The notes under the pieces are model-generated. The model had not been told where the DNA came from. It saw only the letters and a program-made list of their open reading frames with translations, and made no database searches. Made by a program: the position numbers and the translations under genes. From NCBI GenBank assembly GCA_033286805.1, contig GCA_033286805.1_4727.1: DNA of 64,000 nt; one strand, 5' to 3'. Below, piece after piece: positions 1,742-42,400 of the stretch; position 1 is the stretch's first letter, and every line of letters starts with the position of its first letter. The stretch is from a phage.

Positions 1742-1767
1742 TTGGGACTCCTACGTAGGAAAATCTT

Positions 1768-1816
1768 GGCGGGTGATCATGTCCGCCATTTACCTTCTGA
1801 ACCGTTGATTCAGAAG
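1768..1816. promoter_or_regulatory. two further hairpins in the same leader (GGCGG...CCGCC and CTTCTGAA...TTCAGAAG)
   Basis: Inverted repeats at 1768-1787 and 1794-1816 between the terminator hairpin and the start at 1741. Confidence 0.4.
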
Positions 1817-1848
1817 TCAAAAGATAACCGGATACCAACGTCATAAAA

Positions 1849-1881
1849 CCTTCCTCCAACCCAACAGGGAAGGAGGAAGGG
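1849..1881. terminator. GC-rich hairpin element CCTTCCTCC-AACCCAACAGGGA-AGGAGGAAGG
   Basis: 9-bp stem read directly; flanked by CATAAAA on the left; 10 nt downstream of the minus-strand stop at 1891. Confidence 0.6.
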
Positions 1882-1890
1882 ATATAGTGG

Positions 1891-3180: not shown

Positions 3181-3189
3181 GTTAGTTCC

Positions 3190-4506
3190 TTAACCTTTGG
3201 TATAAGCTTTAACGAGAGTGTTGATAAATGAGGTCAATGCACGAAGATATTGGTAAGCGAATTGGTTTTCAATACGGTTCTCTTTACCGCAAAGCAGAAT
3301 CGCGCGCTTAACGAGCTTAGGATAGATCTCAACGTACGGTTGGTAGCTTGCATCAAAATTCTGTTCGTTGAAGCGTTTCATGGTGATTTCCTGGATGCGC
3401 TCCATGGTACGAATTTTATTGCGAGAGAACATCTCAGAGAAAGCACGTCCGCGTTTTGTTACCATCAACAGATCTTTCGCGAACGTCAGTTGTCGAACGC
3501 TACGCAAATCGTCAGGTGTCGGCAGGACGTACGTTTCCGGGTCACTATCCCATTCAACATCTTCAACGACAATATCCAAGTCGAGGTAACGTTTAACCGC
3601 ATCGACGATATTGTCTTTTGATGCGTCGAATTCTTTCAAGAAGACCGCGCCGTTGATGTAACGAATGCGTTTTCCGGAAACCGTTGGAGTGATAACGTCA
3701 GTACCTTCCACGGAACCGCGATTTTCCAGCGTTGATTTGACAGCGTTCAAGAAAGACAGGTAATCAACGGGAAGTTTTTCAACCTTATCTAAATGGAAGT
3801 CGATGATGTTTAACCCCAACCCATCAATAACCGAATAGCCGTCCGATTTAAGGAACATCTGATTGAAGGTATCAATGTTGCTTTTCAGCGTGTCTACACC
3901 ACCAACGTTGTTACGGTTAGGGAAAAGTGTCCGCCACTCCGCTTTAAACGCAACTTCTTTATTTTCCTTGTATTTGCCTTTAGGCATTTGTTCGAGGTCT
4001 GCAACGGCTTTCTGAAAATTGCGCGTCTCGTCGTAAACAAGACGGGTAAGCTTCTCGAAGGCTGCTGCCAAGGTCAGGGCAATATCAACAATGATATCCC
4101 AGATCTTTTTCATGGCTTTTACAACGGTGTCCTTAAACCCTTCAACAACCAAAGCTTCTCCAACTTCAACACGATCGGTTGGAGTCAGCAATGCTTCGGA
4201 GGGTAGACCCAGAGCAATCGATGCGGATTCTTGCACATTACGAACTAATGCAACGTCACTGTAGTTAGCCGATTCGATAGTCGGAGCAACATCAAAACTG
4301 ATTTCCCGTAATGCGGCAACAGCAGGGAAAGCACGATCAAGTGCATCTTCATGTTCGTCGATTGTCGCCAAACGTAATTCAACGCCATCAGCATCGATGA
4401 CATCGGCTGTAGGCTCCACAGCAAGCGCCTCAGCAACAATAGGATCTTTTTCAAACGCCTCAAGGCTGATATCGCCTTGGGTCGCAAATAGCGGTATGTG
4501 TACCAT
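3190..4506 (-). CDS. putative virion/internal protein, paralog family member
   Basis: ORF track starts at TTG 4530; ATG at 4506 has a GGAGA SD. Motif RVEVGEALVVEGFKDTVVKAMKKIW. Confidence 0.7.
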   Translation of the reverse strand: MVHIPLFATQGDISLEAFEKDPIVAEALAVEPTADVIDADGVELRLATIDEHEDALDRAFPAVAALREISFDVAPTIESANYSDVALVRNVQESASIALGLPSEALLTPTDRVEVGEALVVEGFKDTVVKAMKKIWDIIVDIALTLAAAFEKLTRLVYDETRNFQKAVADLEQMPKGKYKENKEVAFKAEWRTLFPNRNNVGGVDTLKSNIDTFNQMFLKSDGYSVIDGLGLNIIDFHLDKVEKLPVDYLSFLNAVKSTLENRGSVEGTDVITPTVSGKRIRYINGAVFLKEFDASKDNIVDAVKRYLDLDIVVEDVEWDSDPETYVLPTPDDLRSVRQLTFAKDLLMVTKRGRAFSEMFSRNKIRTMERIQEITMKRFNEQNFDASYQPYVEIYPKLVKRAILLCGKENRIENQFAYQYLRALTSFINTLVKAYTKG

Positions 4507-4554
4507 GTGTTGTCTCCAGTAATGATTCAAAAGATAAACCTGAGCGGCATAGAA

Positions 4555-4586
4555 CCCTCTCCCAACCCGTCAGGGAAGGGAGAGGG
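4555..4586. terminator. hairpin element CCCTCTCCC-AACCCGTCAGGGAA-GGGAGAGGG
   Basis: Perfect 9-bp stem; flanks CATAGAA and AATATG; between the stop at 4609 and the start at 4506. Confidence 0.65.
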
Positions 4587-4608
4587 AATATGTCAGTTTA
4601 TTAACTGA

Positions 4609-5931
4609 TTACTGCTGTGCTGCGTCAGCCGGTTTCTCAGCCGCCTGGCCGCCGTACTCTTTCAGCATTTTAGCAACGCCATCCAGGACAGCGTTACCTG
4701 CCTGAACACCGTATTTCATCAGACCGGTCTGCGGGTTCACGTAGCAGGAACGTGCGTCTTTCAGCGCAGACAGTACAGCTTGAACACGCTGTTTTTCCTG
4801 AGCGGAAACTTCGCCTTTCTTAGACAGATCGGCTTCCATATCGTCACCGAATTTAACAGCGTCTTTGAAGCCCTGGGATTTCTTACCGATGTTGCCTTTC
4901 AGCGCCAGCAGTTTGTCAGCCAGTACTTCAACACCGCTAACCGCAGCAGCCAGCTGGTTCAGGGACAGGACGGTAGCTTCAACTTCTTTTGCTTCGCCGG
5001 TGCGTTCCCAGGTTACTTTACCATCGTTGGCTTTGAAACCCCAACCTGCCGGACCAGCAACGTCAGCAATCGCCGGAGCGTTCAGTTTATCAGCGTACTC
5101 GGTGTGAGATTTAGCAACAACGGTACCAACGAATTTATCAGCGCGATCGTCAGCAGCCTTCATTGCTTTCTCGAAGGTGTCAGCGATTTTGGTCGCGCCG
5201 GTAACCAGATCGTCGCCACCGATGTAGCCAGAAACGCCGCTACCCAGTTTAACTTTGGTATTTTTAGCAGCGCCTTTACGTTTGGCGATCATTTCTTTCA
5301 GTTTAGCGGCACGTGCTTTCAGCTTGGTTGCGCCGTCGAAGATACGATCCATGAACTTCACGAAGGTTTCCCAGGAAGTCTTCAGGAAGTTCTTGATGGT
5401 TGCCCACAGTTTCTGCCACCATTTTTGTTCTTCCAGGAAGATCATGTTGGTTGCATCGTAGCGGGAAGCGGAACCACCGAAGCTTTCGAAGGACGGCATG
5501 GTTTCCGGCAGTTTGAAACCGATAGTACCGCACAGACGTTTCAGATTACGCATGTGTTCCTGAGCGGTTTGTGCAGACATACCACCGTCTTTCAGGTAGC
5601 TTTCGGTTGCAACAACGGTTTCCGTCAGTTCATCCATGGCTTCGTCCATGGCTTCTGCGGTTTCGTCGTCTTTTGCAATTTCGATAACAACAGCATCAAC
5701 CTGCTCGATATCACCACGAACTTCGATAGCCAGTTCGGTTTCAGCTGCGGTATCTTCAGCGATTTCAGCACGTTCGGTCAGTTCAGCCACAACGGTTTCA
5801 TCCGCTGGTGCAGCATCAGCTGCCGGTTCTGCTTCAACGGTTGCCGCTGCATCCGGATCGATCTCAGCAGCCAGTTGAACCAGCTGTGCGTTAGATGGAT
5901 TTGCGACAAGACGATCAAAAATAGAAGGCAT
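4609..5931 (-). CDS. putative virion protein with acidic Ala/Glu/Asp-rich N-terminal region
   Basis: 440-aa ORF, ATG with AAAGGAAAC SD; the antisense 390-aa ORF is Cys/Phe-rich and was rejected. Confidence 0.7.
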   Translation of the reverse strand: MPSIFDRLVANPSNAQLVQLAAEIDPDAAATVEAEPAADAAPADETVVAELTERAEIAEDTAAETELAIEVRGDIEQVDAVVIEIAKDDETAEAMDEAMDELTETVVATESYLKDGGMSAQTAQEHMRNLKRLCGTIGFKLPETMPSFESFGGSASRYDATNMIFLEEQKWWQKLWATIKNFLKTSWETFVKFMDRIFDGATKLKARAAKLKEMIAKRKGAAKNTKVKLGSGVSGYIGGDDLVTGATKIADTFEKAMKAADDRADKFVGTVVAKSHTEYADKLNAPAIADVAGPAGWGFKANDGKVTWERTGEAKEVEATVLSLNQLAAAVSGVEVLADKLLALKGNIGKKSQGFKDAVKFGDDMEADLSKKGEVSAQEKQRVQAVLSALKDARSCYVNPQTGLMKYGVQAGNAVLDGVAKMLKEYGGQAAEKPADAAQQ

Positions 5932-12871: not shown

Positions 12872-15800
12872 TTATCTTACGTTACTGCTATTCTGCTGTT
12901 CGCTGAACCAACCGTACACCTTGAGATCGGTACCATATCTCAGTGCGATATACGCATTCAGCGCAGCACAGAACAAAGACGCGAATGCCCATATCAGCGA
13001 AGGATCAACATCTTCCGTTACCACTGGGAGAGTATTATCCGGTTCCCATGATGGAGAACTGTCCATGAACGTCGTGTACCATTCCCGCCGTTGTTCTTCA
13101 GTGGTAAAGTCGCTATGGGGTTCCAATGCTTCTTTTGCCAGACGTCGATATTCGAACATATGCGTTGCTAAAGCCGATGAGTTACCAGATTCGCCTTCAT
13201 AGTTCGGATCCACCGCATAACAGAGTTCTGTGGAATCTAACAAAGCGACCGCCTGTGTGATGCTGTCGGCAGTGCCTGCACCATAGAGCTCGATAGACCG
13301 CGAGAGCTTCTCACAGAACGCATTTAACGCGGCAGGATTGGACACCTGAAGGTCAAGGCCTAATGTCCACGGATAGTTACTGAATACACCCGTAAACCGC
13401 GGCATAACACCCAACAGATGTTGTCCGATTACAGCACGGTTATAAACAGCCCGGTTATAGACTTGAAACGCAGCCTCCAGGGCTTGGTTATAATGACGAC
13501 GAAGTTCATCACGCGTGTTGCGGAACCTGTTTGCCGCGAGACTTGTGGCTGCAACGCTACAAACATCGTAATTGGTGGACGAGAGCACAACCTCGTTAAG
13601 ATCGAACGATTCCTGTTTCAATGTTCCGCTAACAGCTGCCGCTTCGCTGTTCGCTTTATCGACAACTGTACTCAAAGCGTTGATGTAACGTTTAGCTCGG
13701 ACCTCCAACCATTGTGCGATGCCGAGAATATCCACCGCAGCTTTAGCAAGATCGCGTGCATTCACGATTTCGTTCTTCAACGCCCCTAAACCTTTATTTT
13801 CAGGCGATGAGGCTTGTTGACGAATCATGCTGTTCAACATGGTAAGCAGATTATCCAACTCATGTCCGCTGACCTTGTTACGCGCATCGGTAATCGGCCC
13901 TTGCAGGAATTTACGGCAACCATCGTTGTATCGAATCAGTTTATCCACATCGATAGATTCGTTCGTAGATTCCTTGAACTGATCCTTCAATTCTTCACGG
14001 TAGTCGTGGATTTCACTTGCGAGATTATCGATAGTGATACCGTCATGTCCAAGAAGAACTTTATTGAAGTTACCTTTCTCGAATGCCAGAGCAAGACCTT
14101 CACGAATCTTAGCGAGTTTATCCTGATCGAGTTCACGACCGTTCGATAGCTCTTTCACTTCCGAGCTGATTAATGCCGAAACGTTACCCAGATTGTCGGT
14201 AACTCCTTTGAACGCTCCCGACCAAATCGTTCCTACTTCAGCATATTTCGCAATGGTCTGAATACCGACGGTGTGTAGCGACGCTAAACGTTTCTTCGTG
14301 CCTTCGGTAAGCAGAGCGTCTTTAGCTCGCGTAAGCTGACTGTTATTAGCTTCCGCCTGCTGAATCGCTGCTTTCGCACTTCCATTACGCCAGCTCTTAA
14401 CCAGCCAATCAACCAAACGTTTTAGGATATTGACGGTGTATTCCATTGTCCGCCGTAACGTTTCCCACGCGCTTTCTGCGGTATAGATGCCGTACCCTTC
14501 CATCTTCAACGCTTTCAAGCTTGTTTGACGTGCCAACCATTCTACCGTTGCAGAGCAAACGTTTACTAATGCTTCCAGGTAGTTGTAATAGACGTCTGTT
14601 GCAGTTGTTTCGTTGAACTTTGAATGCAGATAGAACTGATCGTAAAGTTCGTCGTCATCGCCGAAGGCATCATAGTTCCACAGTTCTGTATCACAACCTG
14701 TACCGCAGAAGACGTCAGCTGTCGTAAACTCTTTAAGCGCTTTAGCTGCGTCATTTGTCAGGAATTTACCTGTTTCAACTACATCGTCAACATTAAGCTT
14801 GGGGAGTTCGTCGGTGACTGGCTCTTCCAACATCAGCATATTGAAGAATGTGCTGTACTTGTATCCGAGCCATTTTGGATAACTGCTTTCAGGGATCGTA
14901 GACAGCGGCTTGATTTTCTTGGCTTCAGCCAATGTGTCTTTTGCGACCTGATATTGGTTTTCCCCAGCCTTGACGCGACGTAATGCTTTTTCTTCCAACT
15001 GCTTAAGCTTGGCATGGCGTGCTTGTGCTGGAGCTTCAACAAGTTTTTGTACCGACCGCATTGCAGAAATCGCTTCTTTTAATACGATCATCGGCATACG
15101 AACTTTACCGTCGTCGAAACTAAGAGCGCGAGCGACACGTTTACTTACGACCGGCTTATCATGGATATTTCGTTCCACCCACGATTTGTTTGCGTAAGTT
15201 TGAGCGATCTGCTGTTGGATATTTTCAAGGTATTTCCAGCTGCTGGATGCTTTATTATCCAAAAGCGGATTCGGTCCCTTCTTATCGAAAAGTTTCAGAA
15301 TCGGACCAAAGAAACCTTCCTGTACGAGTTCGATACGCGTGTATCCGTCAGCCGCTTCGATTTCTTCTTGGGTTTTGTCCCAGAGCTGTTCACTACGGAC
15401 AGCAGTAGCTGTTTCAGATACCGACATAACAAGCTCGGCAACAACTTCAGCGCAGGTCAGTACGGTACGCACGCATTGCAGTAGCATACGCTGGTAAACG
15501 ATACGGGCGTTTTGTAAACGTGCGATAACCGCTAAATAACCGATATTGTCAAGACGTTCGTCGGCTTGAGCAGAGTCAACACGTTCTATCAGTTGTTTAA
15601 CCAGCGCGGCTGTTTCCGGATAATCGTTCACGACGTCACGCATAATTCGTGATGCGAAAACCGCGGTACCTAAAACAGTGAGGAGTGTTTTACTATCCCA
15701 TTCTTTTGGTGTCGCTACCGATTCAGTAGGGATGAGATTTCCCGCCTGGTCGAAGTACGGCATAAGGACATTGATATCAGTAGACGGAACAGCAGTAATT

Positions 15801-16477
15801 GCGTTATACTCTTCATCCGCACCATCGTTGCCAGACGGCTGTAATGCAAGTGCTTGTTCAAGGATTTTGCGGTCAGCGGCATAAAGCGCCGACAGAGCTT
15901 GCGTTGCCGCAACCAAATCAACGATCGGCGACCAGAGCTGTGCGAGCTTACCTTCGTATTTCCGTACAGCGATAGCAAGGTCTTCTTTTACGTCTGGATG
16001 ATTGATTAAACCACCCAATGTTTCATGGATGGCAGAAAAACGTTCGGAATGTGCTTGTGTCAACGCGGTAAAATCGTCAACGTACGACGCATTTTCTTCA
16101 AGGCGTGTAAGTTCCTGCTCCAGGAGATCTTTTACTTGCGTAGCAGATGCGTTTCTCAACTGTTCACCGATAATCGCGATGGCTTTATCGACAACGCGAC
16201 AAGCTTCATTGAAGCCGGTTGTTGAAGGTAACTCGGTCCATAATGCCAGCGGCTTACCTTCCATTGCGTCAGGAAGGGAATATGACAACATTGCTAGTTG
16301 TTGACGTGATACCTGTTTGTCACGATGTAATGTTTCTTTCAACGCCAGAAGCTCATCAAGACCCACACTGCTAGGGATCGTGGGATGTGATACAGCGTTG
16401 ATGTTTTCTGCTAATGACTCAAGAACCAATAAACCATTTTCAGCGGAAGATAACCCTGCTTTAAGGTATTTGTTCAT
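12872..16477 (-). CDS. large putative virion/internal protein (1201 aa), paralog family
   Basis: ATG with GGAG SD; contains RIELVQEGFFGPILKLF, related to the motif in the 430-aa paralogs. Confidence 0.7.
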   Translation of the reverse strand: MNKYLKAGLSSAENGLLVLESLAENINAVSHPTIPSSVGLDELLALKETLHRDKQVSRQQLAMLSYSLPDAMEGKPLALWTELPSTTGFNEACRVVDKAIAIIGEQLRNASATQVKDLLEQELTRLEENASYVDDFTALTQAHSERFSAIHETLGGLINHPDVKEDLAIAVRKYEGKLAQLWSPIVDLVAATQALSALYAADRKILEQALALQPSGNDGADEEYNAITAVPSTDINVLMPYFDQAGNLIPTESVATPKEWDSKTLLTVLGTAVFASRIMRDVVNDYPETAALVKQLIERVDSAQADERLDNIGYLAVIARLQNARIVYQRMLLQCVRTVLTCAEVVAELVMSVSETATAVRSEQLWDKTQEEIEAADGYTRIELVQEGFFGPILKLFDKKGPNPLLDNKASSSWKYLENIQQQIAQTYANKSWVERNIHDKPVVSKRVARALSFDDGKVRMPMIVLKEAISAMRSVQKLVEAPAQARHAKLKQLEEKALRRVKAGENQYQVAKDTLAEAKKIKPLSTIPESSYPKWLGYKYSTFFNMLMLEEPVTDELPKLNVDDVVETGKFLTNDAAKALKEFTTADVFCGTGCDTELWNYDAFGDDDELYDQFYLHSKFNETTATDVYYNYLEALVNVCSATVEWLARQTSLKALKMEGYGIYTAESAWETLRRTMEYTVNILKRLVDWLVKSWRNGSAKAAIQQAEANNSQLTRAKDALLTEGTKKRLASLHTVGIQTIAKYAEVGTIWSGAFKGVTDNLGNVSALISSEVKELSNGRELDQDKLAKIREGLALAFEKGNFNKVLLGHDGITIDNLASEIHDYREELKDQFKESTNESIDVDKLIRYNDGCRKFLQGPITDARNKVSGHELDNLLTMLNSMIRQQASSPENKGLGALKNEIVNARDLAKAAVDILGIAQWLEVRAKRYINALSTVVDKANSEAAAVSGTLKQESFDLNEVVLSSTNYDVCSVAATSLAANRFRNTRDELRRHYNQALEAAFQVYNRAVYNRAVIGQHLLGVMPRFTGVFSNYPWTLGLDLQVSNPAALNAFCEKLSRSIELYGAGTADSITQAVALLDSTELCYAVDPNYEGESGNSSALATHMFEYRRLAKEALEPHSDFTTEEQRREWYTTFMDSSPSWEPDNTLPVVTEDVDPSLIWAFASLFCAALNAYIALRYGTDLKVYGWFSEQQNSSNVR

Positions 16478-21358: not shown

Positions 21359-23110
21359 ATGAGCGAACAAGAACGAAAACCTAAGAAGAAACTGCTCGGT
21401 ATTCAATGTCGACACATCAGCTATAACGAAGCGAACGATGGCAGCAAGAACGACCTCATGATCGCAAAAGAGATCATGTTCTTCGATGATAATACGCAAG
21501 CGACGAATCTTCGCTTCTTCGAGAATTACAAACGTCCGTTTTGGGTGACGGTAGAGAGTAAACGTAAGAACAAATATAAAAAGGAAAGCGAGAAGCTCTC
21601 GCATGTGCGTCGCTATGATGTCCGCCAAAGTGAACTGGTTGAAAAGATCAGTTCGGTGCTTTATAAAAGACGTGCTGATGACAACACCCGTCTACAGCAG
21701 CTTGCACGGAGTCCATACCTCTATGGCACGGACGTTAGCGCCAGCTGTTATTTAAAAACCCAGTACAACACAAAATGGCCGGAATACGTCGATAAATTAC
21801 CCGCTTCCATTGCCTGTTTCGATATCGAAACCGACGTTGTCCACGGGCACGGTAAGATCGTCTGTATGTCTATTACAATGGGATACAATGCGATACTTTG
21901 CTATACCAAGGACTTCGTTGGTCATATTCCGAATGCGATTGAGAAAACCCATGAGAAGATTCGATATTACCTGGCCGAACGTCTGAATACCAAAGAAGAT
22001 CCTCATGCGTTCGAAAAATATCATTACGATGTGCGAATCGTAGAAAGTCCGGCGCAAGCAGTCATCCAGTGCATGCAGAAGGTTCACGAATGGCAGCCGG
22101 ATTATCTCCTTGGCTGGAATATCGCGTTCGATATTCCGCGCATGCTCCAGGCACTGAACGAGGAAGGGTATCGTCCCGAGGATGTTTTCTCCGATCCTCG
22201 TGTACCACCTAAATATCGTATTGCTCGCTGGGTACCACCGAAGACAGACAAGGTATCTGCTTCAGGTCGTAAAACCAACCTTACCCTTGAGCAGACCTGG
22301 CCGATGTTTTATACGATGGCCACATACCAGGTTATGGATGCGATGTGCGGTTATAAGTTCGTTCGTTTAGGAAGACCGGATGAAGGACGCTATTCACTCG
22401 ATGCGGTGTTAGAGCGAAATAAATGCCATACGAAATTAAAAGCGATTCCTGGTACAGAGGGGTTCACGGAGCTTGCGTGGCACGAAGAGATGCAAACGAA
22501 CCATCAAATCGACTACGGCGTATATAACCTTTGGGATAACCAGGGTATCGAGGCGTTGGACCAGAAAACAAAAGACTATTCGATGACCATCCCTATTCGT
22601 TTGGCGGCGTCGGATTTGAAAGATTTCAGTTCTAACCCTAAACGTATCTGTGACAAACTTTTCTTCGTTTATCTTAACCGTGGGGAAGTCATGGGATGCA
22701 CTGCCGACGACATGACCCAGGAAGAAGATAAGTGGGTTATCTCACGAACCGGACATATCGTCACATTACCGTGCGATCTCATGGCGGACAACGGCATTCA
22801 TCTCTTCTGGGATATGCCGAACCTGAGAAGTTATATCCGTCTATTCGTTGCAGACCTCGACATTAGCAGTTCATACCCAAACGGGCAGATCCTGTTGAAT
22901 TTATCCAGAGCATGTGTTTTTCGTGAGCTCTCGCGCATTGAAGGCGTCTCTGACTATCAATTCAGGAAGTTAGGTATCAACTTTATTACCGGAGGTAAAA
23001 CGAACGCTGTAGACTTCTGTAGAATCGTTTATAAAGCACCATCGATGTTCGAACTCTTAGAACATTTCGATGCAACGCGTCCAAAAGGGGAAGCGCGGAC
23101 CATCGAATGA
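21359..23110 (+). CDS. family-B DNA polymerase N-terminal fragment (3'-5' exonuclease domain plus palm motif A)
   Basis: Exo I CFDIETD, Exo II GWNIAFD, Exo III YNLWD, motif A DLDISSSYP; ends ~75 aa after motif A with no motif B or C. No SD before the ATG. Confidence 0.6.
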   Translation: MSEQERKPKKKLLGIQCRHISYNEANDGSKNDLMIAKEIMFFDDNTQATNLRFFENYKRPFWVTVESKRKNKYKKESEKLSHVRRYDVRQSELVEKISSVLYKRRADDNTRLQQLARSPYLYGTDVSASCYLKTQYNTKWPEYVDKLPASIACFDIETDVVHGHGKIVCMSITMGYNAILCYTKDFVGHIPNAIEKTHEKIRYYLAERLNTKEDPHAFEKYHYDVRIVESPAQAVIQCMQKVHEWQPDYLLGWNIAFDIPRMLQALNEEGYRPEDVFSDPRVPPKYRIARWVPPKTDKVSASGRKTNLTLEQTWPMFYTMATYQVMDAMCGYKFVRLGRPDEGRYSLDAVLERNKCHTKLKAIPGTEGFTELAWHEEMQTNHQIDYGVYNLWDNQGIEALDQKTKDYSMTIPIRLAASDLKDFSSNPKRICDKLFFVYLNRGEVMGCTADDMTQEEDKWVISRTGHIVTLPCDLMADNGIHLFWDMPNLRSYIRLFVADLDISSSYPNGQILLNLSRACVFRELSRIEGVSDYQFRKLGINFITGGKTNAVDFCRIVYKAPSMFELLEHFDATRPKGEARTIE

Positions 23111-23190: not shown

Positions 23191-23208
23191 TGGAGGTTTT
23201 ATGTGTTT

Positions 23209-23655
23209 TTAATTATTGTTGGTGGGGTTATCGTCCGGTTTATATTCAATGCCGTAGGCGACGTAACGGTCTGTTGTATGGACGACAAGCGAGATAGGGA
23301 AATCATAATGCATAGTTTTGTCTCGAACGAGCTGAGTAAAGAGATCCATATAACGTATTAAGTCTTCACTGGTGTAATCAGAAGGGAAGAAGACATCGAT
23401 GGTTATTGAATCTTCATAGAGGCGTATGACCAACTTATCCAGAAGGTCGGCATATTGGTTAGCCGGGGTGACGTCCAGCTGACAGATGTCACGATCTCCT
23501 TCGTCTCGCGATACCCACATCGTGGTATCCTGTAATGAGGTTTCAAGGATCTCGAAAACACATTTTGCTGTAAGTCTTAGTTTATTTGTTACGTCATGGT
23601 TAGGTGAATAATGGTCACGGATGTTTTTCACTGCGTCTTTGATAGAGAAAGTCAT
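23209..23655 (-). CDS. small paralog-array protein (family member A)
   Basis: Start moved to the ATG with AGGAA SD (MTFSIKDAVKNI); C-terminal DFPISLVVH...YGIEYKPDD shared with the neighbouring paralogs. Confidence 0.6.
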   Translation of the reverse strand: MTFSIKDAVKNIRDHYSPNHDVTNKLRLTAKCVFEILETSLQDTTMWVSRDEGDRDICQLDVTPANQYADLLDKLVIRLYEDSITIDVFFPSDYTSEDLIRYMDLFTQLVRDKTMHYDFPISLVVHTTDRYVAYGIEYKPDDNPTNNN

Positions 23656-23686
23656 TGTTGCTGTTCCTGTTATAGTCAACATATAG

Positions 23687-23717
23687 CCCTTCCCTAGCCG
23701 TCAAGGCCGGGGAAGGG
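23687..23717. terminator. hairpin CCCTTCCC...GGGAAGGG
   Basis: 8-bp stem flanked by ATATAG and TATG; between paralog genes. Confidence 0.55.
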
Positions 23718-23732
23718 TATGTTTACGTGTAA

Positions 23733-24128
23733 TTACTTTTTGGCGTCCGTTGGTGATTCAGTATGTTTCTCGCTGCTGGTGTACCAGAGTAGGTATGTCG
23801 GGAAAAGATTAACCTCTAAGCTAAACGGGATATTATATTTTTCTTCCATTTTGCAGAGATGTTCTTTAAGTAAATCCCTTGCTTCTTTGTTACGGCGAGC
23901 GGAGTGCCAATGTAGTTCTTCGTTCTCCTTTACCAGTACTTCTACAATGATACGCTGCTCGTGAACCTCGGTTTTCACAATAGCAAGTAAATCGTTACTA
24001 TCGAAACGGGTAAAACGAATGTACGAACCAGGCGTTTTTTCTTGTTTAACGATATCGATCATAGTAGAAATGTGTGGGTGATCGATGTTGTCGTTAACTG
24101 CTTTAACGATGGAATCTACAACGCTCAT
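23733..24128 (-). CDS. small paralog-array protein (divergent member)
   Basis: N-terminus MSVVDSIVKAVN resembles the paralog N-termini; AAGGA SD. Confidence 0.55.
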   Translation of the reverse strand: MSVVDSIVKAVNDNIDHPHISTMIDIVKQEKTPGSYIRFTRFDSNDLLAIVKTEVHEQRIIVEVLVKENEELHWHSARRNKEARDLLKEHLCKMEEKYNIPFSLEVNLFPTYLLWYTSSEKHTESPTDAKK

Positions 24129-24168
24129 TTTTTTTTATCCTTAATGTTATCGGTTTAGAAATAATATT

Positions 24169-24933
24169 TTATTTGCTGTTATCTTTATCGACAGTTGTTA
24201 CCCATGATGGGAAAGCCGGATGGAAACAGAGCGTGAACGTAACCTTCGTATCGTATTTAAACGCACGGTCCACTAGCCGAGTATCGAACGTTTCCCTTAG
24301 ACCGTCATCATCGTTATCGATGACAGCCATATCCCTTAATATCCCAAGCACGTTAACGCCATCTGGTGTCTGGGTTACAACAAGTCGTCGTAATGGTCCG
24401 CATGTATAATCACGTACGTATCCTTTCTTCGGGTCCGATACTCTATTTAACGCATCGTGATTTTCGATGAATTCATCGGCAATACGAGTGATGTGTTCCC
24501 TTGCTTTATCTGGATCGTATTCTGCTAATAGTTCCTTCGTGTCGAATGTTATCGCGTTATTAGCATTCGATTCAGAAGGGAAACATAAAACTAAACGAAC
24601 AGGGTATTCGTATTGATCTGTTCTTGTTTCGAAAGCATTAGCTAAACACGGCTTGTATGCCTTTGCGTCGACATTGTCCAAACACGGATGCAATAATGCA
24701 TGAATAACGGCACCATCATCAGTTAAACCGAATTCCATAAATTGTGTTTCATCGGTGTCTGTTACGGTTTTCTGAAGGTACGCTTTACCGTTAACAATAT
24801 CGGTATCCCACATATCGTCGTTTAACGATTCTTCAAACTTATCGAATATATGGTTTACGAGATTGACGAGTTCATCAATACGGCACTGTTGGTTGAATTC
24901 GATTAATCGTTGAACTTTATCTTTGATAGACAT
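24169..24933 (-). CDS. small paralog-array protein, apparently duplicated domain (254 aa)
   Basis: MSIKDKVQRL N-terminus; internal YEYPVRLVLCFP and VTFTLCFHP repeats; AGGAG SD. Confidence 0.6.
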   Translation of the reverse strand: MSIKDKVQRLIEFNQQCRIDELVNLVNHIFDKFEESLNDDMWDTDIVNGKAYLQKTVTDTDETQFMEFGLTDDGAVIHALLHPCLDNVDAKAYKPCLANAFETRTDQYEYPVRLVLCFPSESNANNAITFDTKELLAEYDPDKAREHITRIADEFIENHDALNRVSDPKKGYVRDYTCGPLRRLVVTQTPDGVNVLGILRDMAVIDNDDDGLRETFDTRLVDRAFKYDTKVTFTLCFHPAFPSWVTTVDKDNSK

Positions 24934-24935
24934 GA

Positions 24936-25394
24936 TTACCCATTAGCTCCTTCTTCGTCTGGAGAGTATTCCATCGTGTAGAATTCATAACCGTCGGAAA
25001 ACTTGAGTGTTAATGTAATAGGGAAATCGCACGGCATAGCTGATTTCGTAAATGCGTTATTAGCAACATCAGCCAACCGACGTATAGCATCAGTCCCGCT
25101 GACGCTGAATGGTAGTTGTATGTTGATAAGGATGCGGTGCTTGTAAACATAGAAAACAACGGTGCTGTCAAGATAAACGCTATGGAACGGTATTGTTGGG
25201 ATGCGTTCCACGATGGTAAAATACGTCCCGTCATTATCGCTATGTCCCACCGACCAAATATCGGATTTGCGTAGATTTTGTTTGAGAGATTCGATACTTC
25301 GAGTGACGGTATCAGCAACAGGTGCGACGTAAGCGTCTTTATGCGAGTCGAAAAGTTCGTTGACGTTAGATTCGAATGAATACATTGTTGCCAT
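24936..25394 (-). CDS. small paralog-array protein
   Basis: C-terminal DFPITLTLKFSDGYEFYTMEYSPDEEG; GAGGT SD. Confidence 0.6.
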   Translation of the reverse strand: MATMYSFESNVNELFDSHKDAYVAPVADTVTRSIESLKQNLRKSDIWSVGHSDNDGTYFTIVERIPTIPFHSVYLDSTVVFYVYKHRILINIQLPFSVSGTDAIRRLADVANNAFTKSAMPCDFPITLTLKFSDGYEFYTMEYSPDEEGANG

Positions 25395-26649: not shown

Positions 26650-26675
26650 AAAAAAAAGGTGGGGCGAACCCCACC
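26650..26675 (-). terminator. rho-independent terminator (minus strand)
   Basis: GGTGGGG-CGAA-CCCCACC preceded on plus by A8, so a U-tract follows on the minus transcript; just past the stop at 26701. Confidence 0.75.
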
Positions 26676-28566: not shown

Positions 28567-29868
28567 TTAACTAATATAAAGTTCAGGATCGTAAGGCGCT
28601 AACGATACACTGGCGTTATGCATTGCTTTCATCATAGTGTTCATGAAAACGTTGTTTACACCGGTGATCTCTGCCCCGATCGCGTCTGGGGTTGGAGCCA
28701 TCGCGTTACCGCAACAGGTAGCACAGTATTCCAATGGGCCTGCTTTACAACGTTGAGGATCACGTAACTTGATGGTTTGTCCTTCCAAGGAAGCAAGTAA
28801 TTCAGCATCAATAAGTTTAAGCGCCGCGCCGTCGATCATGTAACGACCGACAAGCAGCTTATCTTTGACATGATCGCGGTTTACCGTGAACAGAATATGT
28901 TCGTGGGTACCACAGTCGTCCATCGTGATTTTAAGGTTCTGTGTCGCACGCTGTGATTCTTTCGCCGTCTGTCCCGCTAAAGCGGTCAGTGCGCCACGTG
29001 AGAACGAACCTGCACGTGCACTGTTGTTGTACTCCGCCCAATGGTCGACACGCATCCCTTCAGCCAGGCTGTGTGTGATAACGTTACGTTTACCAGGGTC
29101 AACGAAGTCGGCTTCAACCCCCATCATGATGTGCGTTTTCTTTCGAGTATTACCGAAACTCTTGCCAGGGTTAATATAAAACCCTTCCGATTCATCACCC
29201 TTAAAGGATTCCTTATCCATTTTGGTTAGCGTGGCTTCGAGTTTGATCAGTTCTTCAGGTGTGAACTTACCTTCCTCTTGTAAGCGTGCTAACTCTTTAT
29301 CACGATAGGCAATAATATCATCATCGACCGTTAACGCTTTATCGCTCATCGATGGGACAATTAAACGGTTGATAGCGGTTAACGCACTGATATTGTTGGT
29401 GAATTTCTTCACTTCGCTTGCGTACAGCGGGCCAATAGGACGTTCGTTAGGATCGGGTATCCCCTCTTCGGGATCGTCCGCTACGCGTGGCGCAATCAGT
29501 GATTCCAGTGTACCGCTGGTCAACCGCCCTGCCTGATATTCAATCTGAATACCAAAAGCATCATAAAGGACGTACATATTGAACAACGCTTCACCGAAGG
29601 TTGTGGTGGTCGTATTCTTAACCGACGGTAGATCACCAGGTGCAAGCTCCAATGGCTCCCAGAAACTCAACAGGGGTTTTGTTGGCTCGGTTTCCCATTG
29701 GTGTTCTTCACCGTCGATGGTAACCGTAACGACGTTACCTTGACGACGTAATTTAGGCTGATACTTCTCAGCGCCGCCTTCCGTAAAAGCAAATGCGTCG
29801 TTAATCCATTCAAGATAACGGTAGTGCCCTTCACGCATCGCGTAAAGGAAATATTCACGAGGTGTCAT
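28567..29868 (-). CDS. putative multisubunit RNA polymerase beta-prime fragment
   Basis: By-eye match to the E. coli beta-prime region: bridge-helix-like SRGALTALAGQTAKE, then DCGT, then CKAGPLEYCATCCG (cf. C..CAHCYG zinc motif), then AIG...TMMKAMH (cf. GEAIGV...TMRTFH). No NADFDGD motif. AAGGAG SD. Confidence 0.45.
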   Translation of the reverse strand: MTPREYFLYAMREGHYRYLEWINDAFAFTEGGAEKYQPKLRRQGNVVTVTIDGEEHQWETEPTKPLLSFWEPLELAPGDLPSVKNTTTTTFGEALFNMYVLYDAFGIQIEYQAGRLTSGTLESLIAPRVADDPEEGIPDPNERPIGPLYASEVKKFTNNISALTAINRLIVPSMSDKALTVDDDIIAYRDKELARLQEEGKFTPEELIKLEATLTKMDKESFKGDESEGFYINPGKSFGNTRKKTHIMMGVEADFVDPGKRNVITHSLAEGMRVDHWAEYNNSARAGSFSRGALTALAGQTAKESQRATQNLKITMDDCGTHEHILFTVNRDHVKDKLLVGRYMIDGAALKLIDAELLASLEGQTIKLRDPQRCKAGPLEYCATCCGNAMAPTPDAIGAEITGVNNVFMNTMMKAMHNASVSLAPYDPELYIS

Positions 29869-29881
29869 GTAACAACTCCTT

Positions 29882-30754
29882 TTAAACCCGGGTCAGGTCA
29901 CCGTGACATGAAACGAACTCTGATAGCGCTCGGGTTGCTTCTTTGGATTCTTCAGCCATCGGGAAGTTTGCGGTAATAAGTTCTCGTAAGACAGGGACGA
30001 GTTCATTATCTTCGAGATCGGAAGCTAAGGCGAATGCAATCAGTTCTTGGGTGTATGCATACGGTTGCTGACGTAATGCAGTAAGCTGATCCCGACACTG
30101 CGACATTAGCAGGTCCAGTGGAACCGCTATCGTACCCCCTTCATCAATATACTGGCTGAACACCGGTGGGAACGCATCGCTGATGACACGAATACGTCGA
30201 CGAATATGATCCGGAATCTGGACGTTTTCTTCGTCAGCGACGTTTTCGCTATCTTTCTCCAGCTTCTTGGTCAGTACCTGTTGGATGCGTGGGAGCAAGC
30301 TTGAATGCACGAAACCGATTAATGGGGTTACGTTAACAGCATCAACGCCGTAAATATGACGCACGCATTCCGCCAGCGCTTCAGCTGTGGTGTAGTCTTC
30401 ATCTTCAACGATAGCGAGTAGAAAAGCGGTATCGTCGTGTGTTTCCAGGTCTAATAACGTAGACGCTAGTGCATGAAGATATTTCAGGCTATCCAGAGTT
30501 AGCTGTCCTTCGTTAATTCGGATCCCGAAGGCAAGCAATTGTTGTTTATAAAGTTCGATACATCCGTTTGTTAAAATGATATCTAATTCGTTTAAATCGT
30601 ATTGTTCCCCAGCACCTGATAACATCGTACTGCAGAACGTTTCCAGTTGTTCACATTTAAAATCTTGGTATAAACGATGCATGCAGTGCTGTAACAGCGT
30701 ACGCCTTGTTTCAGGGATCTTACCTTCTAACAAAGCCAAGACGGAATCAATCAT
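29882..30754 (-). CDS. hypothetical protein
   Basis: ORF-track start is GTG 30760; ATG at 30754 with GGAGTGG SD. Confidence 0.6.
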   Translation of the reverse strand: MIDSVLALLEGKIPETRRTLLQHCMHRLYQDFKCEQLETFCSTMLSGAGEQYDLNELDIILTNGCIELYKQQLLAFGIRINEGQLTLDSLKYLHALASTLLDLETHDDTAFLLAIVEDEDYTTAEALAECVRHIYGVDAVNVTPLIGFVHSSLLPRIQQVLTKKLEKDSENVADEENVQIPDHIRRRIRVISDAFPPVFSQYIDEGGTIAVPLDLLMSQCRDQLTALRQQPYAYTQELIAFALASDLEDNELVPVLRELITANFPMAEESKEATRALSEFVSCHGDLTRV

Positions 30755-30850
30755 ATCCACTCCGATGCGGTAAATGTCTACTAGCTCTCATAATCTATTG
30801 AAGAAACTACCAGCTTACGCCAACTTAGATTAATCAGGAGTAACCATCCC

Positions 30851-31324
30851 ATGCCAGTTTCATCCAAACCAAGAAAAAAATCCGTAGGAAACCCTAAAGC
30901 TCAGGAAACAACAGCGATTCGTTGGGACGAGTTACGTGAACCTATCGAAAACTGCGAATTGTTGTTGGGCACCCTGGGTGCGGCTATTTACCAAGCGACG
31001 CAACCCTGTCGTTTACGATTAACCCAAAACAAACGTGATGAGTTCGTTGCGTTATCAACAAGCACGAATAAAGATCTGACCGAACTTCAAACCGAGTTGA
31101 CGACGATCAAGAACTCCATTACGCCGATGTACGGTAAAGAAGTTGATGAACAAAGTATTCTGTTACAGTACAACTACGGGATGTCGTTAATGAACATCCT
31201 GGAACGCGCATCCGATATTCTGCGTCCTGACGTTGCACGCCTAAGCCAACTGCGTGTCGAAGGGATGGAGAACCAGATCCGATTCGCTAACAGTGTTAAA
31301 TCTCAAGGAGCCACCGAAGCATGA
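30851..31324 (+). CDS. hypothetical protein
   Basis: 157-aa ORF, AGGAG SD; stop overlaps the next start (ATGA). Confidence 0.6.
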   Translation: MPVSSKPRKKSVGNPKAQETTAIRWDELREPIENCELLLGTLGAAIYQATQPCRLRLTQNKRDEFVALSTSTNKDLTELQTELTTIKNSITPMYGKEVDEQSILLQYNYGMSLMNILERASDILRPDVARLSQLRVEGMENQIRFANSVKSQGATEA

Positions 31325-33006
31325 GCGAACAAGAAAAAGAAGTCGTGACGAATCAGGAAGCCGTCGAGCGTTCAGAGTCGTCCGTTGAAACCACGATTCC
31401 GGCAAGTTCCGAGCCTGTTGGTTCCACACAGCAGGAAAGTAAAGACGAAGTCAGCACGACTAAAGAAGATGTAGCGGCTCCAGAAGCAACCCGTGAAGAA
31501 GAACCATCACATCCACCGCTGGTTGATTTCTCGAAAGCAACGATACGTTTCCAATGCGAAGACATTCGTCCTAAGAGCCCGAAGAAAACAAAACGCCAGC
31601 CGCTGGTGTTACCGCTGTATTCTCCGCGTGTACAAACAGCGTATTACAAGGAATACATCAACGAAGCAATGGATACCGTACAAGCCATTGTCGCTCAACG
31701 CGGTAAACCTTCGGACGAGCAATTTGATAAATTCAGTAAAGCGGTAGTGCAATCGGTTGCTGATGGGCAATACCAACCGCGTGGCCCAGCTCACGATCGC
31801 GCCTTGGAACGTAAGGGCAGTCAGTGGACTAACGTACCCGTAGACTCATCGGGTGTTGGTCGCGTTATTCCTGGCATTCCACAACCGAATCATATTCCTG
31901 ATGATGTCGAAGCGCCGCTGACAGGAACCGATGCGATCTATTTTGCAATCCGCAATACGAAATCGGGCGCACCTGCGGTAATGCCGTTATGGCATAGCGG
32001 TATTAAGCTGCAGTTCAATCCACCGTCAAATGAACGTGTCGCAATTATGCATGAACGTATTGCACGCGATAAAATCCTGGGTGGACGTGATAGTACCGGT
32101 TTCCTGTTTTCGGCAACCTCGATTATCACCATGAAGCACGCAATCGAATTAGCATTAGAATGCTGCTACATGGCCAACGTACCGAACCTGGATATCCAGC
32201 GTTTGAAAGACATTATTCCGGTTACCGATGTTCCAGCACTGTTGTTGAACGTGCTGGTAACCATGTATCCGTACGGATATCCTTACGTACAGACCTGCTA
32301 TCAGAATCCAGAAACCTGCGACTATCGTGTTGAAGATACCGTAAGCTTTGCGAAGCTCTATCAAGTTGACAACAGTGCGATTACCAAACGTATGCGACAG
32401 ATCATGACCGAAGGTCCGGTCATGACCGATGAACTTTTGCGTGAGTATGCAAACGAACTGGGTGAAACAAACTCCCGTACGCTGGATCTGTCCGACAACG
32501 GTTCTGTTATCATTGAACTTGAAGTACCGAAGATCTCACGACAAATCGCCATGGGCGAGCGCTGGTTAAGCGATACCCTGGAAGATCTGCGTGATATTCT
32601 ATCGCGTCCGTCAATGACCGAAGAAGAGCGCGATCGTGTTATTCGTGAACGTCAGTTCTATAGCTGGATGCGTCAGTATGATGCATGGATCAAATCGATG
32701 CATGTGTCAGTAAACGGCACCATGCGTCGTGTAAGCGATGCGGATACAGCAACGGTATTAGCGCAGCTGTCTCGTGATAGTGATCTTCGTGAACGCTATA
32801 TCGATGGGTTGATGCAATTCATCGGTGATTCGACGATTGCGCTCGCAGCAATGCCTGCCTGGAAATGTCCGAAATGTAATGCCGATATTGCTGACAATCT
32901 GCGTGACCAGAAATACTACGATCTGATTGCTTTGGATGTACCCCAGCTTTTTTTTACCCTAAACTCCGTCCAATCTCTTCAGGAGGGGATGGACGCGGTA
33001 TTCTAA
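31321..33006 (+). CDS. hypothetical protein with acidic Ser/Thr/Glu-rich N-terminus (561 aa)
   Basis: AAGGAG SD; a T8 run at 32948-32955 lies near the 3' end. Confidence 0.65.
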   Translation: MSEQEKEVVTNQEAVERSESSVETTIPASSEPVGSTQQESKDEVSTTKEDVAAPEATREEEPSHPPLVDFSKATIRFQCEDIRPKSPKKTKRQPLVLPLYSPRVQTAYYKEYINEAMDTVQAIVAQRGKPSDEQFDKFSKAVVQSVADGQYQPRGPAHDRALERKGSQWTNVPVDSSGVGRVIPGIPQPNHIPDDVEAPLTGTDAIYFAIRNTKSGAPAVMPLWHSGIKLQFNPPSNERVAIMHERIARDKILGGRDSTGFLFSATSIITMKHAIELALECCYMANVPNLDIQRLKDIIPVTDVPALLLNVLVTMYPYGYPYVQTCYQNPETCDYRVEDTVSFAKLYQVDNSAITKRMRQIMTEGPVMTDELLREYANELGETNSRTLDLSDNGSVIIELEVPKISRQIAMGERWLSDTLEDLRDILSRPSMTEEERDRVIRERQFYSWMRQYDAWIKSMHVSVNGTMRRVSDADTATVLAQLSRDSDLRERYIDGLMQFIGDSTIALAAMPAWKCPKCNADIADNLRDQKYYDLIALDVPQLFFTLNSVQSLQEGMDAVF

Positions 33007-39441: not shown

Positions 39442-42400
39442 TACATAAACTCCTCGATGATGCAAATCCCATTAGCACCACGCCCACCAGGCTTAGCGGT
39501 TCCTGAGTAAGAGTTATCGTAAGCACCGCCACCACCCGAACCAGGCGCGAGGCCGTTATGGGCGGTGCCAACACCAGCGCGACCGCCACCGCCCCAATAT
39601 GACGCACCCCCACATCCACCGACGGCAAGAGTACCGGCTTGTCCATCGTTACCGTCTCCGCCCGGAATGCGTATATCCCCGGTAGTAGGTACGCCCCCAT
39701 AGCCACCGCCAGTGTTTGTGACAGTTGTTTTTCCTGCGCCTTGCCCGCCGGGAGCAGTTAGCAGGGATGCAAATTTACTATCCCCACCCCCGTTCCCAGA
39801 CGTCGCCCCAGAGCCACCGGAACCACCAGAACCAATTACAACAGAATAACTAGCAGCTGTTACCGTTATAACCGAAATTACTGTTCCGCCAGCGCCTCCC
39901 CCAGCGCCAAAAAACGTTTCGCTGTTGGAATAAGCCTGACAGCCACCGCCGCCACCGCCGCCACCGGTTATTGTTACTCTAATCCGTTTTGTTCCTTGTG
40001 TTGGGGTGTACGTCCCTGACGATGTGAAAACACGCATGTTCAGTAAACGTCCGACATATCCGCTAGAATCGGCTAAACCAAGATCTTTAGCTGCTAACGT
40101 GATATTAGCTGTACCGTCAAACGGTTTACCGTTAATCGTGCGCGCGGTCTGCAACTTCGTCGCCGTTGCTGCGTTTCCTGATGTGTTCTGGTTCCCCGCA
40201 GCGTTAACACCCGGCAGATTGATGTTCGCACTACCGTCGAAAGATACCCCACCAATGGTGCGGGCTGTTTTCAGTTTTGTCGCCGTGGCAGCATTACCGG
40301 TTGTGTCTTGGTTACCGGTGGTGTTTACCCCAGGCAGGTTGATATTTGCCGTTCCGTTAAATGAAACACCGCCAATCGTCCTTGCTGTTTGAAGCCTCGT
40401 CGCGGTAGCGGCGTTACCCGTCGTGTTCTGGTTTCCGGTTGTGTTCACACCAGGGATACTATCTTTCGAGGTGTAGATCTGTGCCCATTCTGACCAGTTC
40501 GAATCGGCCGCATCACGACGTGAACGTAGGTAAGCTGGAGCGTATGCACCTGAGGTACCTGACCACCCAATGAGGATTTCACCTTCACCGACCGATGAAG
40601 CCCCTTTAAGATGAATGACGTTACCATAAGCGGTGGGATACCCGTTATTGTACGCTTCATACATCTGGATGCCCGCATTGCTGCCCTGAGCCGTGTTAGC
40701 TAATGCCGTAACACGACCTTTGGAGGCGAGAGCGGTAATACTGAAGCTAATATCCTTAGTACCGTCAAAGGCGACCCCATTAATCTTCCGTGCTGTTTGG
40801 AGTTTCGTGGCGGTAGCCGCATTACCAGAGGTACTCTGATTACCTGCTTTGTTCACGCCAGGCAAATCAATGTTGGCTGTTCCATCAAAGGACACGCCCC
40901 CTATGGTTCTCGCTGTCTGGAGTTTTGTTGCTGAGCCAGCGTTTCCGGAAGTGCTTTGATTACCTGCCGCGTTGACACCTGGTAGGTTAATGCTAGCAGA
41001 GCCATCAAAAGAAACTCCACCGATCGTGATTGGTGTTTTCAATTTCGTGGCTGTCGCAGCATTACCCGTCGTATTCTGATTGCCAGCCGCATTAACGCCT
41101 GGTAATGCGATATCGGTCGTACCATCGAACGCGACACCACCGATTTTACGGGCAGTCTGTAGCTTGGTCGCTGTAGCCGCGTTGCCGCTGGTATTTTGCG
41201 TGCCCGCTTTATTTACGCCTGGTAAATCAATGTTCGCAGTACCATCAAAAGAAACACCCCCGATGGTTCTCGCGGTCTCAAGTTTGGTTGCGCTTCCTGC
41301 GTTTCCGCTGGTGTCTTGGTTTCCCGCTGCATCAACACCCGGTAGACTGATGCTGGCCGAACCATCGAAACTCACACCACCGATCGTAACAGCGGTTTTC
41401 AATTTCGTAGCGGTTGCAGCGTTCCCCGTGGTATTTTGGTTACCTGTCGCATTCACACCCGGTAATGCAATATCCGCTGTTCCGTCAAAGGCAACGCCAC
41501 CGATTCTACGTGCAGTTTGTAGCTTGGTTGCACTAGCAGCGTTACCGCTGGTATTCTGGGTGCCAGCTTTGTTAACACCAGGGAGATCGATGTTAGCAGA
41601 ACCATCGAAGCTAACGCCACCTATCGTTCTTGCAGTAGCAAGTTTAGCTGCTGTAGCAGCGGCGTTACCGACTTTTAACCATTCGCCCCATGGACCATCC
41701 TGGCCGTTCCATGATGCCGTTAAACTACGTACGTAAATATTGCCGGTACATACAGTGTAACGTTGCGTTCCACCGAATTGCCCGGTTGGGAGCACTTCAA
41801 TGTAACCTGCGGCATTTGCTTCAGGGAAATTGTGGGCGACGTCCGCGTTCGTTGATACTGGTTTAGACCAAATACCCACAGACGCTTCAACCGGACCGTA
41901 CGTATTCAGATTTGCGTCGGTGGGAAGTTGTCCTCGAAAACGCTGGAATTGTGTTGCCGATAACCCCAACGTTGTTTGCATGCTTTCAATGCTGGATTGC
42001 TGAAGTAACGTCCGTGCTGTCGACGTAATCACGGTAAGCGCAACTTTATTAACACCGGTGAAATACGGGAGTTTGTCTGCTGATGTCGCTAAACCTGAAA
42101 AGGCGGTCAGTAATGCGTTAAGGGGCTGCTTCCCAGCTAACGCATTTGTTACCGTCGTTGCGAAATTAGGATCACTTCCTATAGCTCGAGCCAGCTTATT
42201 AAGCGTATTTAGCGTCGCTGGTGACGAGTCGATCAGCGCCGTGATCGCACGCATCACAAATTCCGTGTTGGCTATCTGTCGACTGCTATTGTTAACTGCT
42301 GCGGTGGGCGCTGCTGGCGTACCAGTGAATACAGGGCTATTAAGATCCGCCTTGAGGGCGATGAGACGTTTAAGCGCTTCAACATCAACTTTCAGGTTTT

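Follow-up and report, generated by a model that had tools for sequence, protein, structure and literature searches.

The question raised by this locus is which part of which RNA polymerase (RNAP), if any, is encoded by a single ATG-initiated open reading frame (ORF) of 433 aa in the minus-strand ORF listing of the window, i.e. the whole 64,000-nt stretch of phage DNA that was analysed. The initial annotation, made by eye, had proposed a beta-prime fragment from a split multisubunit RNAP as in phiKZ-like phages. As described below, the ORF is almost certainly beta-prime-M, the middle beta-prime fragment of the virion RNA polymerase (vRNAP), which covers roughly residues 520-950 of Escherichia coli beta-prime minus SI3, that is, the middle third of beta-prime. 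For this assignment, homology, motif conservation, fold, orthology with phiKZ gp80 and purifying selection were computed here. The coordinates of all features are collected in Table 1.

A megablast comparison places the source of the DNA. The window matches positions 59161-125082 of Escherichia phage vB_EcoM_Goslar (NC_048170.1) in blocks of 94-97% nucleotide identity with several indels; the window phage is a close relative of Goslar, not Goslar itself. The parallel with phiKZ-like phages drawn at the outset was correct, because the phage is itself a phiKZ-like chimallivirus, and can now be narrowed to the middle piece of beta-prime and to the virion polymerase. When the phage collection is searched with tblastn, the ORF shows 99.5% identity to Goslar 88080-89378, and the matched gene is gp078 (YP_009820763.1), annotated ‘RNA polymerase beta subunit’. 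The two proteins differ at two residues (322, H in the window and Q in Goslar; 334, V in the window and I in Goslar). At the nucleotide level there are 41 differences, with 38 synonymous and 2 nonsynonymous codon changes, which points to strong purifying selection on the gene.

Further differences between the window and Goslar were seen away from this gene. A 1.8-kb segment with Goslar gp069 (a NUMOD1/HNH homing endonuclease beside the DNA polymerase gene gp068) is missing at window ~22851-22874, and Goslar gp120 is absent at ~61025. For window segments 23203-24950 and 14507-16179, megablast finds nothing at the equivalent Goslar positions. Among the stretches that do align, divergence is greatest in the tail-fibre gene at ~40100-41900 (Goslar gp090, P1 gpS-like), with 84-88% identity versus ~95% elsewhere, the usual signature of host-range variation.

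Pfam gives no match for the ORF, even at an E-value of 10; the curated RNAP domain models are thus blind to the beta-prime-M family, and the connection with cellular beta-prime has to be drawn from profiles and structure. Within phages, PHROG 2962 (‘RNA polymerase beta subunit’, a 433-position profile) covers residues 1-432 of 433 with an E-value of 4e-106. A single-sequence phmmer search of PDB sequences aligns residues 263-329 without gaps to E. coli RpoC 758-824 (E = 0.003), in keeping with the bridge helix and DCGT that had been recognized by eye; a seven-sequence profile raises the E. coli beta-prime match to 4.8e-7 and spans the bridge helix, DCGT and the Cys cluster. A word-indexed search for homologues gave only 9-10 proteins, profile included, and an exhaustive HMMER search was then used. 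It returned 2365 cluster representatives (934 at E<=1e-30, almost all of 425-455 aa), and the family is found in 311 jumbo-phage genomes with hosts from Pseudomonas to Bacillus. From these representatives we drew a 150-sequence alignment (A3) at ~30% identity, on which the per-residue conservation counts are based. [quoted passage not shown] A first AF2 model on a nine-sequence alignment reached a pLDDT of 64 and was superseded by one using the exhaustive HMMER alignment. The predicted fold resembles beta-prime across the whole fragment, with structure-based identity to E. coli beta-prime of ~17-19%.

The translation holds SRGALTALAGQTAKE at residues 290-304, DCGT at 318-321, CKAGPLEYCATCCG at 374-387, AIG at 396-398 and TMMKAMH at 411-417, and these stretches can be mapped onto E. 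coli beta-prime residue by residue. In the bridge helix, R285 corresponds to R780, G287 to G782, T295 to T790, G299 to G794 and K303 to R798. The zinc-binding cysteines suggested earlier are borne out: C319, C374, C382 and C385 are invariant in all 150 sequences, fall on the Zn-II ligands C814, C888, C895 and C898 in HMM alignments, and make up the predicted second zinc site. Significant HMM alignments to cellular beta-prime end near E. coli 905-918; past ~918, the trigger-loop map is based on an anchored ungapped alignment, invariance, a predicted helix at 397-417 and the HMM alignment to phiKZ gp74. On this basis A396-I397-G398 corresponds to A914-I915-G916, and TMMKAMH aligns with LTMRTFH (E. 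coli 930-936), pairing M413 with M932, K414 with R933 and H417 with H936. The His is invariant (150/150), position 413 has M in 129 sequences and L in the other 21, and H417 falls on H388 in the ‘LSTKH’ motif of phiKZ gp74 when profile positions 317-423 are aligned with gp74 284-394, so that the proposed start of the trigger loop also stands. In full, the invariant columns are G250, R291, T295, G299, C319, C374, C382, C385 and H417.

Table 1. Features of the beta-prime-M locus in the window, and partner genes in the Goslar reference (no window position)
Feature	Position	Strand	Remarks
Coding sequence of beta-prime-M, virion RNA polymerase	28567..29868	-	433 aa + stop; orthologue of Goslar gp078, phiKZ gp80, SPN3US gp42
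Shine-Dalgarno AAGGAG	29876..29881	-	7 nt upstream of ATG at 29868
Upstream gene, 292 aa (Goslar gp079)	29882..30760	-	phiKZ gp79 homologue, E = 3e-7; PHROG 5038, function unknown
TTFGE motif, aa 89-93	29602..29604 (T89 codon)	-	E. coli TTVGR 572-576; most N-terminal sequence anchor
Bridge helix, aa 274-309	28942..29049	-	One long helix in model; sequence alignment
D318-C319-G320-T321	28906..28917	-	E. coli D813-C814-G815-T816; C319 matches first Zn-II ligand
C374-x7-C382-x2-C385	28714..28749	-	E. coli C888/C895/C898, remaining Zn-II ligands
Trigger-loop N-terminal arm, aa 395-417	28618..28686	-	Helix 397-417 in model
C-terminal tail, 16 residues past trigger-loop His	28570..28617	-	Length fixed in 112/118 motif-bearing homologues
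Downstream gene, 208 aa	27915..28541	-	Goslar gp77
Intrinsic terminator GGTGGGG-TTCG-CCCCACC + T8	26650..26675	-	Strong; closes gp079-gp075 run
Goslar gp196			PHROG 3233; beta-C
Goslar gp205			PHROG 2986; beta-prime-N
Goslar gp207			1448 aa; beta-N
Goslar gp210			PHROG 2926 ‘virion structural protein’; phiKZ gp176; beta-prime-C

The next point is which polymerase the fragment belongs to. BLASTP matches phiKZ gp80 over query residues 1-419 of 433 (31% identity, E = 9e-50), and both proteins stop shortly past ‘MKAMH’ or ‘MSKMH’. Virion presence, the five-subunit composition and early-gene transcription are taken from the literature. Goslar gp78 has been found in virions by LC-MS/MS, together with gp196, gp205, gp207 and gp210; gene numbers in that virion study agree with the RefSeq locus tags, as seen from chimallin (gp246) and PhuZ (gp234). 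For phiKZ, the listed virion RNAP subunits are gp178, gp149, gp180 and gp80 (PMC8287921), and phiKZ gp80, annotated ‘structural head protein’, is likewise virion-detected according to the literature. In SPN3US, gp42 (431 aa) is beta-prime-M, accompanied by gp240 (beta-prime-N), gp244 (beta-prime-C), gp241 (beta-N) and gp218 (beta-C); gp42 is present in heads, and heads without gp241 lose all five RNAP polypeptides (PMC5105663). The review of Sokolova et al. gives the vRNAP core as N-, Mid- and C-beta-prime plus N- and C-beta, and states that purified vRNAP is not yet characterised (PMC7598289). The PDB copy searched yielded no vRNAP structure. As the beta-prime-M of a Goslar-like chimallivirus vRNAP, the protein is already known: it is RefSeq-annotated, has been detected by mass spectrometry in Goslar virions and has been assigned as beta-prime-M in SPN3US and phiKZ. 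The RefSeq name of Goslar gp078, ‘RNA polymerase beta subunit’, is imprecise, because the protein is the middle part of beta-prime.

The ‘structural head protein’ label of phiKZ gp80 and the failure of the Pfam RNAP models would also fit a degenerate RpoC relic that has lost any catalytic role and is now just an internal head or structural protein, and the vRNAP has been neither purified nor assayed in the literature. We consider such a relic very unlikely. At an identity of only ~30%, none of the 150 sequences deviates at the bridge-helix R, T and G, the four zinc ligands or the trigger-loop His; the gene is under strong purifying selection; the full set of complementary beta and beta-prime fragments has been kept and is packaged together; and phiKZ-type infection is independent of host RNAP (PMC7598289, PMC8287921). 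A decayed structural protein was rejected on these grounds.

A second alternative is the beta-prime C-terminal subunit of the nvRNAP (phiKZ gp74, AR9 gp154), which transcribes middle and late genes in the phage nucleus. PHROG 3015, a 653-position profile, does give a weak paralogous match (E = 2e-11), as do Goslar gp165 by tblastn (E = 8e-5) and a gp165 plus gp74 profile by hhalign (E = 2e-8 over 76 columns). However, the PHROG 3015 match extends over residues 261-389 only, and the likeness to this class is confined to the segment from DCGT to the zinc site. The ORF has 433 aa as against 630-680 aa for nvRNAP beta-prime-C, with nothing beyond a 16-residue tail after the trigger-loop His; phiKZ gp74 is not significant by BLASTP, whereas gp80 is matched at full length; Goslar has its own nvRNAP beta-prime-C in gp165 (PHROG 3015, E = 5e-170); and Goslar gp78 occurs in virions. 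Length, gp80 orthology, the separate gp165 and virion presence led us to reject this identity, which has hardly any probability left. Least likely of all, to the point of being negligible, is a recent capture from host rpoC: the phage infects E. coli, and the single-sequence PDB search matches E. coli beta-prime chains best, but a host-derived fragment was rejected in view of the low structure-based identity given above and of a deep phage-specific family (the 934 representatives and 311 jumbo-phage genomes) with conserved polypeptide boundaries.

If the ORF is beta-prime-M of the vRNAP, it should have partners. A search for complementary beta and beta-prime fragments had been suggested with the initial annotation, and its outcome depends on the DNA considered. 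Within the 64-kb window, tblastn with the Goslar RNAP subunits and E. coli beta-prime finds no other subunit, the ORF being the sole match; in the Goslar reference, the four partner genes of Table 1 are present 115-140 kb from gp078. We assume that the window phage carries all four, given its 94-97% identity to Goslar.

The D-x-D-G-D (DFDGD) catalytic motif is absent from the 433-aa translation, as expected for a fragment and as had been noted for NADFDGD, and FDGD is encoded in a different gene of the Goslar reference. There, the gp205 coding sequence ends in ‘...GLGGDQGK...’; gp206, an HNH gene, comes after it, and then a group I intron detected with Rfam (67.7 bits, E = 3e-16). Past the intron, an unannotated frame encodes ‘RFDGDTVSVNVL...GA’ and a stop, ending shortly before gp207; this frame, with FDGD, aligns to E. 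coli F461-D464 onward. RefSeq gp205 appears to be exon 1 read into the intron, and the vRNAP beta-prime-N gene of Goslar is interrupted at the catalytic motif by a group I intron (positions 1400-5400 of stretch L004, Goslar 211400-215400, outside the window). A similar arrangement was seen in the Goslar nvRNAP, also outside the window (L002 7750-11000, Goslar 167750-171000). The last residues of its beta-prime-N, gp247, are ‘...GYNADF’; a group I intron (46.9 bits, E = 5e-10) comes directly next, and then the HNH gene gp186. The sole DGD codons downstream of gp247 precede a stop, and ~350 nt on, gp185 reads ‘...TMNNHIVP’, where E. coli has DGD-Q-MAVHVPL; in between is a second, weak group I match (16.7 bits, E = 0.08). 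From these sequences, the NADFDGD of the Goslar nvRNAP may be interrupted twice, by introns on either side of a DGD micro-exon.

The surroundings of the gene can be viewed in the same light. The stop codon of the upstream gene (29882-29884) is 13 nt from the ATG, and with this spacing the two genes are probably co-transcribed. The upstream product is related to phiKZ gp79, annotated ‘structural head protein’, and gene order and orientation in phiKZ match the window: the gp79-gp80 pair is kept between phiKZ and Goslar-like phages, and phiKZ 77-78 / 79-80 mirrors Goslar gp081-080 / 079-078. It is worth asking whether the gp79-like protein is a vRNAP accessory or packaging factor. On the other side, the published Goslar virion structure includes gp77 as a modelled capsid decoration protein. 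Five same-strand genes, gp079 to gp075, follow one another here, with beta-prime-M in second place, and a unit of virion-protein genes fits a packaged enzyme. Sigma-70-type promoters show no excess around the operon (8 found, 9.2 expected in shuffled sequence), and none is expected because the phage does not use host RNAP. Rfam and tRNA scans find nothing across the whole window. Divergent from the unit, on the plus strand at 31321-33006, is a 561-aa ORF (Goslar gp081, ‘weakly similar to SL2_275’) with an acidic Ser/Thr-rich N-terminus and a C-terminal ‘CPKC’; its position matches phiKZ gp77.

The first arm of the trigger loop is in the ORF, and the second arm lies outside the 433-aa polypeptide. 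Tail length was counted over the 118 family members with a recognizable M..xH motif, and its constancy (Table 1) indicates that the polypeptide break is inside the trigger loop; the tail is itself conserved, with L421 in 120 and D427 in 83 of the 150 sequences. SI3 of E. coli is inserted ~6 residues past H936. In the AR9 nvRNAP, residues 400-508 of gp154 form an insertion domain in the trigger loop (PMC9209446), and this domain begins roughly 8 residues past the equivalent His in the 150-sequence profile alignment. The vRNAP break thus maps to a known insertion hotspot, the trigger-loop tip. An end 16 residues past the trigger-loop His was not found stated in the literature searched.

With the chain end fixed at this point, the trigger loop would be completed, if at all, by another polypeptide, presumably beta-prime-C. 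A beta-prime-C profile (Goslar gp210, phiKZ gp176) was built from 13 sequences, taken from ten phage genomes and three database matches. This profile has no beta-prime match by hmmsearch against the PDB and none by hhalign to E. coli beta-prime 1120-1407 or to gp165 plus gp74, so these tests do not locate the second trigger-loop arm in beta-prime-C; the result agrees with the weak HHpred values reported earlier (PMC5105663). One idea, which we regard as improbable but more than negligible, is that the second break in vRNAP beta-prime is non-arbitrary: it would cut the trigger loop at the tip where SI3 and the AR9 insertion lie, leaving a two-piece or free-ended half trigger loop, and a trigger-loop insertion domain might be the origin of the N-terminal, beta-rich half of beta-prime-C. 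If true, the split loop could reflect adaptation of the enzyme to being packaged, ejected via the tail or reassembled in the early-infection vesicle.

The other end of the chain can be located as well. The peptide encoded by exon 2 of beta-prime-N can be aligned from E. coli 461 and continues for ~55 residues, and the TTFGE motif starts at the equivalent of E. coli 572; together these place the break between beta-prime-N and beta-prime-M near ~520. Residue 141 of cyanobacterial RpoC2 aligns with E. coli 741, which puts the cyanobacterial gamma/beta-prime split near ~600. A ‘common split site’ has been described for phage and cyanobacterial beta-prime (PMC7598289); our alignments tentatively suggest that the site may be common only approximately, with the phage break perhaps ~80 residues upstream of the cyanobacterial one. 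Foldseek points in the same direction, aligning ~40-70 more columns with full-length beta-prime than with RpoC2.

Two variants of the family architecture were noted in passing. Metagenomic family members P0021, P0034, P0041 and P0104 have an extra N-terminal domain of ~145 aa fused to beta-prime-M, reading ‘YHGS..L.P.PS...DGE.AVFAT...’ and with no significant Pfam match. The BFVD entry A0A8S5VG94 (Myoviridae sp. ctkfK18), a 686-aa ‘RNA polymerase subunit beta’, matches the beta-prime-M model at E = 7e-17 and 22% identity, better than the usual nvRNAP class does, and the same phage also encodes a 660-aa nvRNAP-class protein; A0A8S5VG94 may be a natural unsplit beta-prime-M plus beta-prime-C.

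Taken as beta-prime-M, the ORF product would supply the secondary-channel/funnel region, the bridge helix, the second zinc site and the first trigger-loop helix with the catalytic His. It would be unable to catalyse alone and would have to assemble with beta-prime-N (carrying DFDGD), beta-prime-C, beta-N and beta-C. According to the literature, these five polypeptides would rebuild beta and beta-prime without alpha or omega, and the complex would be packaged in the head, injected with the DNA and used to transcribe early genes independently of host RNAP, in chimalliviruses from inside the early-infection vesicle. The vRNAP lets chimalliviruses start transcription in this vesicle without a host polymerase; with that role in the first transcription, its subunits would be essential and potential targets for defence systems or inhibitors. 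What the present analysis adds is marginally new: a residue-level map to E. coli beta-prime, fixed chain ends across ~900 representatives and a break in the trigger-loop tip, which should be useful for building or interpreting a vRNAP structure.

Compared with known systems, the ORF shows no substantive difference from Goslar gp078, phiKZ gp80 and SPN3US gp42 (PHROG 2962). All share full-length orthology, a length of ~430 aa and a C-terminal end 16 residues past the His, and the adjoining gp79-like head protein gene is shared with the Goslar gp078 / phiKZ gp80 family. The nvRNAP beta-prime-C subunits (phiKZ gp74, 7OGP_D; AR9 gp154, 7S00_D; Goslar gp165) are 630-680 aa long and continue through the trigger loop to the beta-prime C-terminus; unlike beta-prime-M, they are expressed early, are unpackaged and work with a fifth, sigma-like subunit. 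Relative to bacterial RpoC (E. coli ~520-950), cyanobacterial RpoC2 and chloroplast beta-double-prime, beta-prime-M is a separate polypeptide with ~17% identity, and it differs from bacterial RpoC in its second break inside the trigger loop, its lack of SI3 and its lack of alpha or omega partners.
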